From the IMG/VR virus record IMGVR_UViG_3300036951_000320, positions 1-64,000 of that record: a stretch of DNA of 64,000 nt; one strand, 5' to 3'. A program made the translations under genes and the position numbers. Source of the stretch: a virus. Lineage: Duplodnaviria > Caudoviricetes. The notes below the pieces were generated by a model that saw only the letters and a program-made list of their open reading frames with translations, searched no databases and was not told where the DNA came from. Position 1 is the stretch's first letter; every line of letters begins with the position of its first letter. Shown here piece after piece: positions 1,885-60,471 of this stretch.

Positions 1885-2517
1885 ATGAACGACGCGATCC
1901 GAGCAATGGTAGTAGGGGAGATTACGTTCGCGCGCTTCGTGCGGCGGACGGAAGGCGAATGGATGCGCCTCGCGGCGTGGCTTCATCGCCGGTGGTCGAT
2001 CCCGGCTTCGATGGAAGTGGGCGATGTCATGCAAGAGCTACTTATCGGAGCATGGGAAGCGGGGAGAAGTTTCGATGATACGCGTGGGACGGACCCGGCG
2101 CGCTTCGTGATATGGTCGGCGATCACGCGGGCGAAGAAGGCAATCAATAGGGAGCGGGGGGCGCTCCGACGTGATGATCGAGCACCGAGCCGGCATCCGA
2201 TCGCGGTTTCGAGACTTGCGCGTGATGGGGGAGAGGGGCTCACGGAAACACGTGTTTCCGTGGTGGCGATTGACCCGACACAATACGAGCGGGCGGAGGC
2301 GATCGAACACGTCGTTTCCCTTGTGGCGGGGCTTCCGGCGGGGGAAATAGACGCTGTGCTCGCCTACGTGGCGGCGGCTGGCAATGAAGAGTTGGCAGCA
2401 TTGACGCTTTATGGATCTACTCGGATGCGGCTTGCACTTAGGCTAGGCTGCGAGGATGACGCAAGGATGCATGTGCGGGCGGCTGTCGGACGCGTTGCGC
2501 GTTCGTTTGCGGCATGA
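1885..2517 (+). CDS. Phage RNA polymerase sigma-70-like factor
   Basis: DVMQELLIGAWEAGRSFDDTRGTDPARFVIW matches sigma region 2; start moved to ATG 1885 behind RBS GAAGGGAG. Confidence 0.7.
   Translation: MNDAIRAMVVGEITFARFVRRTEGEWMRLAAWLHRRWSIPASMEVGDVMQELLIGAWEAGRSFDDTRGTDPARFVIWSAITRAKKAINRERGALRRDDRAPSRHPIAVSRLARDGGEGLTETRVSVVAIDPTQYERAEAIEHVVSLVAGLPAGEIDAVLAYVAAAGNEELAALTLYGSTRMRLALRLGCEDDARMHVRAAVGRVARSFAA
2242..2261. promoter_or_regulatory. 20-bp palindrome copy 1 (inside sigma gene)
   Basis: ACGGAAACACGTGTTTCCGT exact; perfect palindrome extends to 22 bp (2241-2262). Confidence 0.9.
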
Positions 2518-2544
2518 TGACGTTGGGAACAGAAGGGATAAACC

Positions 2545-3810
2545 ATGAAGAAAAATGCAGAGGATTTGATTGATCGTGCGTGTGTTGACCCGGCAACCGT
2601 TGATCGATTTCTCGATCATTATGGGCTCGAAAATAGTGGTGATGAATCGGAGAAGGTGACACGACTTGCACGTCACATGGCGGAAGTCACGCCAAAGGAA
2701 GAAATAAGTGATTGTGATAACTGTGGGGGGGAGAGTGACGTTAGGCTGTCCGTTTGCCCTTATTGTGGGGTGGGGGGGGTAGATGATGGGTTGACAGCGG
2801 AGAATGAGCTTCCATTGTTCTCCCATTCAAAAGACAAGGAGGGGAGCAAGTCGGGGAGTAAGTCGGGGAGCAAGTCGGGGAGCAAGTCGGGGAGCAAGTC
2901 GGGGAGCAAGTCGGGGAGCAAAGAACCTCGAAAACGATCCGAAGTGTCCGAAGCCTCTGAAGCCTCCGAAGTGTCCGAAGCCTCTGAAGCCTCCGAAGTG
3001 TCCGAAGCCTCTGAAGCCTCCGAAGTGTCCGAAGCCTCTGAAGCCTCCGAAGATGCTGTCGAAATCGATGAAGGGACCGTGGAAATCGTGCCGTTCTCTT
3101 CAACACCTACGGTCTATACGGAGGAAGCACTTGACGCGGCTGTGGAAGGTGTGAGGCGTGCGAAAACTCGTGCGGTGGTTTCCTATTGGGAATTGGGGCG
3201 TGCGATTCTCTCGTGCTTTTCGGGGAGCCTGTGGAAGCAGCGGCGCGATGCGGAAGGATCCCCGCTCTACAAATCGTGGTCGCAATTTTGCGCGGCCGAG
3301 TTAGAAATGAGCCCACAATATGCATATCGCATGATGGACGTCGCAGCTACGTTTTCGAGCGAAGACGTAGAACGGTTCGGAGTGAACAAGCTGGGGATCA
3401 TGCTTCGCTTGTCGGAGAATCAACGCGAGAAGATGCTCGAAGAGGCGCGGGCGGGGATGCCATACACAACACTTGCGGAGCAAGTGCGTCAACTAAGCCC
3501 CGGCCCGCGTGACACGGGGCGAAAACAAGTCGGTGAAGGGAAGGGCGGTCGAAAACCAAAGGTGGAGGCACCGACAAATTCGGTTACAGTAGCGCTCACG
3601 ATCGGGCGCGTAAAAGTGCCGTTATTTGCTCGGGTCCCGCCGGCAAAGAAGATGGGAACACAAAAGCGCGCAACGCGCCTTGCCGATGATCCGGTTGGCG
3701 AGGAAATTCTTCTGAACGGAGTGATTCAGCGTTTCGTGATCTCGAAGGATTCCGAAGGGCGTTTGATTCTGATAGTCGAACGCCGACGGGCGTCAACCGC
3801 GGAAAAGTGA
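2545..3810 (+). CDS. Zn-finger and DUF3102-like putative DNA-binding protein with low-complexity linker
   Basis: CDNC...CPYC; YWELGRAIL...YKSWSQFCAAELEMSPQYAYRMM resembles DUF3102. Confidence 0.55.
   Translation: MKKNAEDLIDRACVDPATVDRFLDHYGLENSGDESEKVTRLARHMAEVTPKEEISDCDNCGGESDVRLSVCPYCGVGGVDDGLTAENELPLFSHSKDKEGSKSGSKSGSKSGSKSGSKSGSKSGSKEPRKRSEVSEASEASEVSEASEASEVSEASEASEVSEASEASEDAVEIDEGTVEIVPFSSTPTVYTEEALDAAVEGVRRAKTRAVVSYWELGRAILSCFSGSLWKQRRDAEGSPLYKSWSQFCAAELEMSPQYAYRMMDVAATFSSEDVERFGVNKLGIMLRLSENQREKMLEEARAGMPYTTLAEQVRQLSPGPRDTGRKQVGEGKGGRKPKVEAPTNSVTVALTIGRVKVPLFARVPPAKKMGTQKRATRLADDPVGEEILLNGVIQRFVISKDSEGRLILIVERRRASTAEK
2842..2922 (+). repeat. 12-bp tandem repeat encoding (GSKS)n, about 7 copies
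   Basis: GGGAGCAAGTCG units read directly. Confidence 0.9.
2938..3051 (+). repeat. 27-bp tandem repeat encoding (SEVSEASEA)n, about 4 copies
   Basis: TCCGAAGTGTCCGAAGCCTCTGAAGCC units. Confidence 0.9.
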
Positions 3811-58817: not shown

Positions 58818-60415
58818 TGGCGCGCAAGACGGGGCCCTTGACCTTTGATGACTTGTTCGCGCTTTGGCGTGCGGGTGTTGATCCAGGCTACGCACGGCCC
58901 TTCGTGGAAGGCAAAGCAGAGGGGCGCGAAACGGGGATAGAAGCTTTTGAACAAGGCATTGTTCAGCTTGCGCGTGTGTCGGAAGCGATCGATCGCACAA
59001 CGCAAGCGATGTTTATTGTTCCGTGGTCGGGGCAGACGGACGAACCGGCGCGCGGCGCCAGCAACGCGCGGGTGACGCTTCGGATCGAGCGAAGCAAGCG
59101 CTTCGAAAGCGCGCTTACGTTCGTGCGCGGGAAGGTGATCGTCACCGAAATCATGACGGACTATGGCAAGGACGGCGGTCAAGAGGTTCGCTCGGGGCGG
59201 CGGTTCATCATTGATCGAACGCTCACGTTCGGCCCCGGCGAAGCCGGCCCCCTGTATGTCGAAGCGGTGGCGGAGCAACCCGGCTTCACGTTCAACTTGT
59301 CGCCGATCGGTTCGCTTCGTTCGATCGTGCAACCCGGAAGCACGCTTGCGAACATGAAGGCGACGATCGTTCCGGGCGTTGCATCGCACCGCTTGATCGC
59401 GTGGCCCGAACCCGACGTGCCGATCCCCGAGCACGTCGGGCAATACGTCGAAGTCGTCACGGGCGCGAACGCTGGCGACGTGCGGCGCGTGATCGAATAT
59501 GAGCGCCCGAGCACGGTGTTTCCTCACGGCGGCGTCATGGTGCTTGCGTCTACGGGTATCTACCGCGTGACGGGTGTCGTGGACCCCTTCTCCGAAGGCG
59601 AAGAGGTGGTGAACGGCACCGGCGGGCGCGCGGTGTTCTTCCGGCTCGCGGGCGATCGCATGGTGATCGAAATGCTAGCGGGCGCCTTCGTGGTGGGCGA
59701 CACGTTGACGGGGATCCTTACGGGTGCAAGCGCGACGCTGGACGCGATTGAACAATCCCCGGATATGATCGCGGAGGTGGGGGCGTGCGCGTGGCGAATG
59801 CTGTCGTGGTCTTCCGATTTAGGAGTAACGATCACGAACGAAGAATTTCCGATAGGTGGTGTTGCTCCGATGCTCGATGAATTAGGGGAAGAGCGGGGGC
59901 TTCCACGATCGGCGGGAGAAGATGATTCGAGTTATCGAAAGCGAATTTCAAAGCTTGCGGATGTGGTGAGCCCTAACGCGATCCGTCGGATATGCAACCG
60001 GATCCTCGTGCCCTATGGCTCGACGGTGTGCTTGCGGGAGATCGGGCAAGCTCCCTTCCGTGGCTTCTTCTTCGACGGTGACGCTTCGTCCGTCGACCCC
60101 CGATTTGCGTGGGCGTGGGATCTCGACGCGGTGGCGCAACCGGCGGATCGATGGAAGGTGATCGTTGACTACCTCGAAATGCGGGCGTTCTTCCTTGTGG
60201 GGATTCCTAAATTCGGATTTGGTGAATTTGGGTTCGCGTATGATGAAGGGACAACGAACGCTTTCGATGCTTCACCATGGTTTGCGTTCTTCGATGGGTT
60301 ATCAGTATCGGCTGCAATTCTGTATCGAACGATTTGGAATGCGATTGAAAATGCAAAGGCGGGTGGTGTTGGATTTGATCTGTATTTCGAGCATCACGGA
60401 TGCATAGGAGCATGA
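58817..60415 (+). CDS. Baseplate wedge/tail protein (gpI-like with insertion)
   Basis: LDELGEERGLPRSAGEDDSSYRKRI motif. Confidence 0.65.
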   Translation: MARKTGPLTFDDLFALWRAGVDPGYARPFVEGKAEGRETGIEAFEQGIVQLARVSEAIDRTTQAMFIVPWSGQTDEPARGASNARVTLRIERSKRFESALTFVRGKVIVTEIMTDYGKDGGQEVRSGRRFIIDRTLTFGPGEAGPLYVEAVAEQPGFTFNLSPIGSLRSIVQPGSTLANMKATIVPGVASHRLIAWPEPDVPIPEHVGQYVEVVTGANAGDVRRVIEYERPSTVFPHGGVMVLASTGIYRVTGVVDPFSEGEEVVNGTGGRAVFFRLAGDRMVIEMLAGAFVVGDTLTGILTGASATLDAIEQSPDMIAEVGACAWRMLSWSSDLGVTITNEEFPIGGVAPMLDELGEERGLPRSAGEDDSSYRKRISKLADVVSPNAIRRICNRILVPYGSTVCLREIGQAPFRGFFFDGDASSVDPRFAWAWDLDAVAQPADRWKVIVDYLEMRAFFLVGIPKFGFGEFGFAYDEGTTNAFDASPWFAFFDGLSVSAAILYRTIWNAIENAKAGGVGFDLYFEHHGCIGA

Positions 60416-60471
60416 CGGAAACACGTGTTTCCGTGAACGAACAACCGCGCGAAAGCGCTTTCTGATAGGAT
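60415..60471 (+). promoter_or_regulatory. 20-bp palindrome copy 7 plus -10 element
   Basis: Palindrome 60415-60434; TGATAGGAT with hexamer at 60466-60471. Confidence 0.8.

Follow-up and report, generated by a model that had tools for sequence, protein, structure and literature searches.

What is the function of a 20-bp word that recurs unchanged throughout a phage genome, and which protein reads it? This question is raised by the first 64,000 nucleotides (the window) of the 72,445-bp virus record IMGVR_UViG_3300036951_000320 (Duplodnaviria; Caudoviricetes), a phage labelled G000. The word, ACGGAAACACGTGTTTCCGT, is a perfect palindrome. It occurs in seven exact copies in the window, with 0 expected from shuffled sequence, and a scan of the window for near-miss copies (1-3 and up to 4 mismatches) returned none. 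Most likely, a paired DNA-binding regulator encoded by the phage docks on the palindromes, and its preferred sequence has drifted between phages. The protein encoded at 2545-3810 (the 2545 protein) is our tentative candidate for the reader.

Palindrome arrays in the phage and its relatives

A preliminary description of this DNA had listed the seven copies, and exact matching confirmed each of them (Table 1). It had also pointed to a half-like site around 26629-26643. This site is real and represents a decayed copy, with 9/10 positions retained in the right half and 6/10 in the left half. The motif scan of genome and relatives that had been suggested as a check extended the array to nine exact copies in the whole record (the extra two are at 65543 and 67721). 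In relatives, the words differ, and positions are partly kept.

Relatives were located through capsid and PolB; 13 whole records were fetched, and 12 were scanned for arrays. At least 20 relatives have a multi-copy palindrome of their own, with a length of 18-26 bp and, where well sampled, in 7-20 near-identical copies. It is perfect in the sampled relatives except G006, G011 and G014. The palindrome is ACGGATGATCGATCATCCGT in G001 (17 copies), TCCAATTGGATCGATCCAATTGGA in G002 (20 copies), TGGAA[T/A]CCCGGG[A/T]TTCCA in G003 (13 copies), GACGCCGGATCGATCCGGCGTC in G004 (15 copies plus 2), GAGATAACACCGGTGTTATCTC in G005 (16 copies), CTGAACATCGATGTTCAG in G007 (seven copies) and TGGATGATCGATCATCCA in G009 (six copies in 50 kb). 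About ten more versions are found in other clade loci. Nearly all versions have CG at the centre, and the core seen most often across relatives is ATCGAT. Only degenerate copies are found in G006. In G011 (L161-L164) and G014 (L171-L175), the 18-19 copies are inverted repeats whose centre is asymmetric (ACGTCTA-ACCGGG-TAGACGT and GTGTCT-TCGTCGG-AGACAC). One orientation of the G011 repeat is that with a start codon within 10-20 nt downstream. The same array scan found no repeated palindrome in G013 and G015, and outgroup phages (PolB identity <30%) have no such palindrome arrays. Palindrome similarity tracks the phage phylogeny. The word is therefore inherited and drifts gradually.

The exact 20-mer has no match in the viral_contigs scan, and a 16-mer gave five unrelated single matches. 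When one genome per species was searched for 185,579 prokaryote species, a single 20-mer copy was found, with about 0.5 expected by chance. The palindrome is therefore not a host motif. The lone copy (L180:2138-2157) is on contig JAJZQG010000070.1 of a Myxococcales metagenome-assembled genome. It has two GAAAACACGGG words directly upstream, the surrounding DNA is without similarity to the phage, and the copy is probably due to chance.

In G003, the half-site variants assort independently (six TT sites, three AA sites and four mixed ones). The idea that these variants are symmetric only, which would imply selection for a hairpin, is ruled out by the four mixed sites. Symmetry through the centre and the independent half-sites of G003 together point to a symmetric dimer on duplex DNA and not to a hairpin. 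We consider it likely that the palindromes are read in this form by a dimeric phage protein.

Site positions and promoter context

Positions are partly common to G000, G001 and G009 although the words differ. The junctions common to G000 and G001 are those before the MuF-like, capsid, tape-measure and tail-fibre genes, plus the SbcD junction. Copy 4, for which a syntenic copy exists in G001, is located 13 nt before the MuF-like gene, and copy 7 has syntenic copies in G001 and G009. The capsid genes of G001 and G002 have their own palindrome 153-193 nt upstream; the nearest copy in G004 is 530 nt off. In the sigma-like gene, G000, G001 and G009 each have their own palindrome at the same codon, which is read as TETRVSV in G000 and as TDDRSSV and MDDRSSM in G001 and G009. 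As the linker at this site is re-coded to fit the palindrome of each genome, selection acts on the nucleic-acid word.

Two G000 copies had been described as intragenic and as both being read as TETRVSV. This applies to copy 1, which begins at codon 186 of the sigma-like open reading frame (ORF). The true start of that gene is probably downstream of 1687. For copy 2 the reading is correct in the longest ORF, yet this copy may be intergenic because the orthologous site in G001 precedes the aligned part of that gene. Coding sequence is avoided: in seven relatives, conserved coding DNA holds 6 of the 107 sites, whereas 51 are expected. Site spacing is more even than random in seven of nine genomes (coefficient of variation 0.34-0.63, compared to about 0.9 for random placement).

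A strict signature of leaderless promoters (TAnnnT-N5-8-ATG) is found within 50 nt of 18 of 105 sites, with 1.4 expected. In three phages (G000, G001 and G009), the start of the tape measure gene shares one architecture: the palindrome is followed by 5-6 nt, TTGCnn, N18, TACnCT, N6-7 and ATG, which places the palindrome centre near -52. In G001 and G009, the elements are TTGCCG-N18-TACGCT or TACCCT, then N6 and ATG. In the capsid region of G001, the palindrome is followed by TTGACT at a distance of 4 nt, and the tail-fibre counterpart in this phage has TAGGCT-N6-ATG 28 nt after its own copy. Some relatives' sites overlap the -35 position. In G004, the palindrome is followed by 5 nt, CATAGT, N6 and ATG, and this is seen in both orientations.

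The distances in the preliminary description are all correct (29 nt to TACGTT, CATTCT and TACCCT; 31 nt to TAGGAT; 5 nt to TTGACT and TTGCGC). TACGTT at 17563 falls within an ORF which begins 11 nt after copy 3. A fixed spacing of 29 nt applies to the G000 sites for which it was stated but not in general (see below). That description had offered two interpretations. A late-gene regulator site fits the promoter adjacency, the conserved junctions and the genome-specific words; the everted parS-like system is not supported (see below). We lean slightly towards a transcriptional role of the sites.

Companion motifs of the palindrome are genome-specific in three relatives (loci L043-L057). In G004, CATAGTAGGGGCATG is 5 nt from the palindrome, on either side. 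In G002, the palindrome is located 10 nt before TAACATAGG, and AAA/TTT extensions also occur. The palindrome of G005 abuts GGGACAAACC, which is directly downstream. Between 25000 and 60500 of the window, many genes begin 6-7 nt after a TAnnnT hexamer, which is a leaderless-type signature. Such abundant starts hint at a host that is rich in leaderless mRNAs.

A candidate reader next to a sigma-like gene

Among the binders listed in the preliminary description, the 2545 protein is the best candidate, being clade-wide and having a ParB/KorB-like model. It also stands out from the other proteins of unknown function that are common to all whole genomes. The family was detected in 30 of 33 clade loci, and the sigma-like protein is present in 26 of these 33. 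Throughout the clade, the 2545 family adjoins the sigma-like gene, directly downstream of it, and in 29 clade loci with a mapped domain, the ortholog ends just before PolB. G007 has a single ORF of 729 residues (record 37878-40067, L060:478-2667), in which a sigma-like part (residues 54-147) is fused to the 2545 family (residues 298-605).

The helical domain of the 2545 protein was modelled with high confidence (AF2, predicted local distance difference test (pLDDT) 91.8). In VIA-align comparisons, the domain model matches ParB (6s6h) with Z 7.6 (root-mean-square deviation 3.3, 95 aligned), which is middling for a helical domain. It is followed by Spo0J (1vz0, Z 6.8), KorB (8qa8 and 1r71, Z 6.0 and 5.7) and SopB (Z 4.5). 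The DNA-binding domains of these four proteins bind 13-18-bp palindromes as dimers. The top Foldseek match is Spo0J-parS (4umk, E 0.31), then ParB, P1 ParB and Noc. Neighbours in the ESM Atlas carry DUF3102, ParB_N or HTH_ParB. A profile of the domain found nothing significant among PDB sequences and Pfam beyond weak DUF3102 matches. Pfam did not detect a ParB_N (N-terminal CTPase) domain in the family; CTP-dependent sliding is therefore unlikely.

No Pfam model covers the family, which counts 2,872 cluster representatives at E <=0.001; a word-indexed homolog search gave only seven matches. The C-terminal domain (model pLDDT 85.6) has no fold match above Z 3.6, and a link to the KorB dimerisation domain is therefore not made. 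The linker of the 2545 protein (residues ~95-180) consists of (SGSK)n, then (SEASEV)n. The low-complexity linkers of relatives differ and have 60-150 residues. We consider it a little short of an even bet that the 2545 protein is the reader of the palindromes.

Other proposed binders fared less well. The ParB_N protein (13792), for which the preliminary description had a preference, is without a homolog in G004-G007, and its matches in G002 and G003 are weak and partial; all of these genomes have full arrays. The Fis-like helix-turn-helix (HTH) protein (24238) is found only in G001 among the relatives. The TerS-like protein (18488) is absent from G005 and G007 according to tblastn, and it is implausible as a reader of multiple sites.

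Table 1. Coordinates of palindrome copies, promoter-like elements and selected genes in the window.
Feature	Position	Strand	Details
Sigma-like protein	1687..2517	+	Pfam Sigma70_r2, E 1.6e-7, 31.4 bits (cut-off 24)
Palindrome copy 1	2242..2261		Exact match; inside the sigma-like gene, codons 186-192, TETRVSV
Candidate reader	2545..3810	+	Zn ribbon, low-complexity linker, ParB/KorB-like helix-turn-helix (~186-335), C-terminal beta domain (predicted)
Palindrome copy 2	10822..10841		Junction of SbcD-like gene and gene 10786; syntenic copy in G001
ParB_N protein	13792..14454	+	Pfam ParB_N, E 4.7e-10
Palindrome copy 3	17514..17533		11 nt 5' of ATG at 17545
Decayed copy	26624..26643		5 mismatches; directly before gene 26663; full copies before the ortholog in G001 and G002
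Palindrome copy 4	32746..32765		Begins on the final base of the TGA stop codon of gene 32444-32746
Palindrome copy 5	38601..38620		Upstream of the major capsid gene (38784)
Promoter-like TTGACT-N18-CATTCT	38626..38655	+	Starts 5 nt after copy 5; from sequence
Palindrome copy 6	48625..48644		Upstream of the tape measure gene
TTGCGC-N18-TACCCT-N7-ATG	48650..48689	+	Leaderless-type promoter and tape measure start; architecture kept in G001 and G009
Palindrome copy 7	60415..60434		Overlaps the stop codon (TGA) of gene 58814-60415; 46 nt upstream of the tail-fibre-like gene
TAGGAT-N9-ATG	60466..60483	+	31 nt after copy 7; from sequence

Weighing of explanations and comparison with known systems

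In the explanation that we favour, one phage-encoded, two-fold symmetric and sequence-specific protein would dock on the double-stranded palindromes. The specificity of the reader and the sites would co-evolve and, therefore, each phage would have a private site. The reader would most likely be the 2545 protein, which, together with the adjacent sigma-like factor, may act as a genome-wide transcription regulator. The sites are located at operon boundaries, several of them directly upstream of the -35 element of a late promoter, and the effect may be activation, repression or insulation. For this explanation as a whole (regulation of transcription by the 2545 protein and the sigma-like factor via private palindromes), we assume a probability of roughly 0.45. 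Binding by the 2545 protein, its dimer state and its effect on transcription are what we infer.

Several observations weigh against this explanation. Some concern the choice of the reader. The clade-wide proteins of unknown function 14451, 15593 and 68161 are other possible readers. With Z 7.6 for a helical domain and a Foldseek E of 0.3-2.6, the fold matches of the 2545 protein are no better than middling, and in the structural search Raf1 comes out at a similar level to the ParB-type matches. The fusion to the sigma-like protein is known from one metagenomic contig. The recognition helix (xxYAYxLMDVA) is fairly conserved despite very different palindromes. L117 and G003 have near-identical palindromes and different recognition helices, which perhaps applies also to L115 (single copy seen). 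A partial Mantel test did not single out the 2545 protein from PolB, RecA and DnaB. As every protein correlates in the Mantel and partial Mantel tests, these show a phylogenetic signal and do not identify the reader. Other observations concern the sites. The geometry from palindrome to -10-like hexamer is inconstant, ranging from 5 to ~36 nt within and between relatives. An E. coli-type consensus scan called no promoter at the capsid and tape-measure sites. Most leaderless-type promoters of G000 are without a nearby palindrome, and in several cases a copy is found inside an ORF or only 11-22 nt ahead of a start codon.

Profiles of the three proteins of unknown function had no match in PDB. The one encoded at 15593-15895 is a clade-wide protein of 100 residues without a match in PDB, PHROGs and Pfam. 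It has an invariant Cys-Cys-Cys-His-His set and is therefore likely a zinc binder.

We can go one step further with the favoured explanation, even though this step is rather unlikely to be correct: the palindromes may be a private address code, by which a sigma-linked, CTPase-less reader of the ParB/KorB type marks the phage's own operon starts in a lineage of phages of roughly 70-105 kb. These marks would be addressed to RNA polymerase and the phage sigma-like factor. Fast co-evolution would stop co-infecting relatives, satellites and the host from using or silencing each other's promoters. Such a code would be a palindromic, sigma-tethered counterpart of the polymerase/promoter pairs of the T7 group.

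Among the alternatives, the one which survives best considers the palindromes as architectural docking sites. These might serve genome organisation, compaction or bridging, entry of replication or recombination, or the spacing of packaging, and the same ParB-fold protein or another one might be the reader. The even spacing in seven of nine genomes agrees with such a role, as do the ParB/KorB/SopB-like fold of the candidate, the copies within genes or distant from promoter-like motifs, the RecA-like, SbcCD-like and PDDEXK proteins encoded by the phage, and contigs from run X5 that join different copies (see below). We nevertheless consider this unlikely. There is no ParA: a PF13614 search of G000, G001, G002, G004 and G005 returned only sub-threshold P-loop matches inside DnaB-like helicase genes, with positive controls. 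The candidate is devoid of the ParB N-terminal CTPase domain, and G000 shows neither an integrase nor any other hint of life as a plasmid or lysogen. The strong enrichment beside promoter-like motifs and a candidate gene which is linked, and once fused, to the sigma-like gene also argue against an architectural role.

Hairpins in RNA or single-stranded DNA (terminators, processing sites or stabilising stem-loops, perhaps with an RNA-binding protein) are a quite improbable alternative. Several copies are found 0-18 nt after a stop codon, and RNA folding predicts a stem of 8 bp closed by a 4-nt loop (-11 to -22 kcal/mol when flanks are included). Also, some G011 copies are possibly located at the 5' end of a transcript. 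However, a U-tract (T-run) is absent after every copy, and the terminator scan was empty at the sites. In all sampled genomes but G011 and G014, the symmetry crosses the would-be loop, a feature that a hairpin could do without. Within each genome, the copies are identical and show no compensatory variation, and the mixed half-sites of G003 would mismatch the stem.

It is very improbable that we are dealing with a small repeat, mobile or prone to recombination (repetitive extragenic palindrome (REP), miniature inverted-repeat transposable element or recombinase target), that is homogenised by copying within the genome. The exact identity within the genome, the absence of near-miss copies and the X5 contigs, which join copy flanks in inverted and direct orientation, would be compatible with this. 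However, library artefacts at a self-complementary repeat would give rise to such chimeric contigs just as well. Orthologous positions are kept in G000, G001 and G009 despite the changed sequence, which is at odds with a REP/RAYT-type element. Moreover, searches with PF01797, PF00239 and PF00589 revealed no Y1 transposase, resolvase (serine recombinase) or integrase (tyrosine recombinase) in G000. A site for a host protein, or the mimic of a host motif (parS, nucleoid occlusion, an uptake or defence word) that differs with hosts, has hardly any chance either, because the CACGTG core in common with parS and the GC content of 49-71% among array-bearing relatives, which suggests different hosts, are outweighed by the chance-level copy number in prokaryote species, the arms that mismatch parS and the palindrome similarity that follows phage phylogeny.

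In the way it works, the proposed system of palindrome and 2545 protein may be most similar to KorB and its OB operators. Plasmid RK2 has 12 dispersed OB operators, some of them immediately upstream of a -35 element. On this IncP plasmid (RK2/RP4), KorB with OB exerts global transcription control (PMC11790492). In both cases, identical copies of one short palindrome are dispersed round a mobile genome, with some copies at promoters and others distant from them. KorB has a ParB-family helix-turn-helix, and one is predicted for the candidate reader, with KorB structures 8qa8 and 1r71 among the best fold matches. In contrast to KorB, the candidate is without the ParB N-terminal CTPase domain according to Pfam, and it has no IncC/ParA partner. 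A KorA-like clamp lock was not identified either, though no search was aimed at one. The sites have 18-26 bp (OB: 13 bp) and are private to each genome, the phage is of lytic type, and the gene is sigma-linked.

The palindromes belong to the dispersed dyad repeats of the Cluster O type, a class that is descriptive and without known mechanism. Cluster O mycobacteriophages have a 17-bp dyad (TGTTCGG-N3-CCGAACA), with 34 copies in Corndog (PMC4351075). Common features are an invariant dyad word dispersed over a siphophage genome, which is mostly intergenic with some copies in ORFs, the lack of an integrase and the lack of a known orientation rule. The Cluster O dyad has, however, 7-bp arms and a free 3-bp spacer, and one word is used in all five genomes, while words are private here. 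Also, the lineages are unrelated, and no reader was proposed for Cluster O.

The stoperators of Cluster A mycobacteriophages are dozens of operator-like sites in short intergenic gaps (PMC9283540, PMC6550527). The palindromes share with them the genome-wide distribution in such gaps and, as proposed here, the co-evolution of site and reader into distinct specificities. Stoperators are, however, asymmetric, oriented to transcription and bound by a monomeric repressor of temperate phages. The G000 sites are palindromic, and neither an asymmetric, oriented site nor a temperate immunity repressor was found: G000 has no integrase and no clear HTH of cI type.

The 16-bp palindromes of ParB-parS, SopB-sopC and Noc-NBS are read by dimers. 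G000 has a palindrome with a CACGTG core and a candidate that is predicted to be of the same fold class. Beyond this core, the G000 palindrome does not match the parS consensus (TGTTNCACGTGAAACA), as the arms mismatch. No ParA and no conserved ParB_N protein were found, and the sites are evenly spread and not clustered. The preliminary description had proposed an everted parS-like system. Only CACGTG is common to parS, and relatives have ATCGAT, CCCGGG, ACCGGT and others as cores, so that the resemblance looks coincidental. The palindrome is neither a host motif nor an intrinsic terminator nor a canonical parS.

Phages of the T7 group have a promoter word of ~20 bp, with some 10-20 copies, that is near-invariant in each genome and differs between relatives. 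A repeated genome-specific word is common to both, and in the T7 group it is read by a phage transcription protein. T7 promoters differ in being asymmetric and used by a single-subunit RNA polymerase, while the palindrome is located beside -35/-10-like elements of host type.

Dispersed invariant palindromes have previously been reported in few phages (e.g., Cluster O mycobacteriophages) and without explanation. The lineage analyzed here provides about twenty natural specificity swaps at conserved positions and a concrete candidate reader. What had merely been described as an oddity can thereby be tested as an example of how protein and DNA co-evolve and how lytic phages regulate their genes genome-wide. 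Should the reader be confirmed, its family would form an extensive branch of ParB-fold proteins, so far without annotation, which work without CTP, and it would be a source of orthogonal pairs of 20-bp operators and regulators.

All long genes of G000 are on the + strand. Annotated genes are those for sigma-like, PolB, RecA-like, SbcD-like, SbcC-like, PDDEXK nuclease, ParB_N (13792), DNA methylase, TerL (21830), MuF-like, capsid (38784), SNF2 helicase, DnaB and DnaG proteins. The phage was detected in wastewater, activated-sludge and digester runs of 14 studies. In the wastewater run X5, which is labelled as RNA, depth over the phage is flat and DNA-like. In contigs from this run, the flank of one palindrome copy is connected to another copy's flank in reverse complement (junctions at window positions 32744, 38622 and 48624, with partner flanks at record positions 67743-67772, 65511-65540 and 60436-60465). 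In one further X5 contig, copies 4 and 5 are joined in direct orientation, with 5.8 kb skipped. Such junctions represent either chimeras that arose in the library at a self-complementary repeat or genuine recombination between sites. The metatranscriptome X15 (activated sludge) contains only eight short pieces of the phage. Where its contigs differ from window positions 46418-46471 and 50683-50694, the differences are exclusively runs of C-to-T, which could be strain variation or damage- or editing-like artefacts in low-depth contigs.

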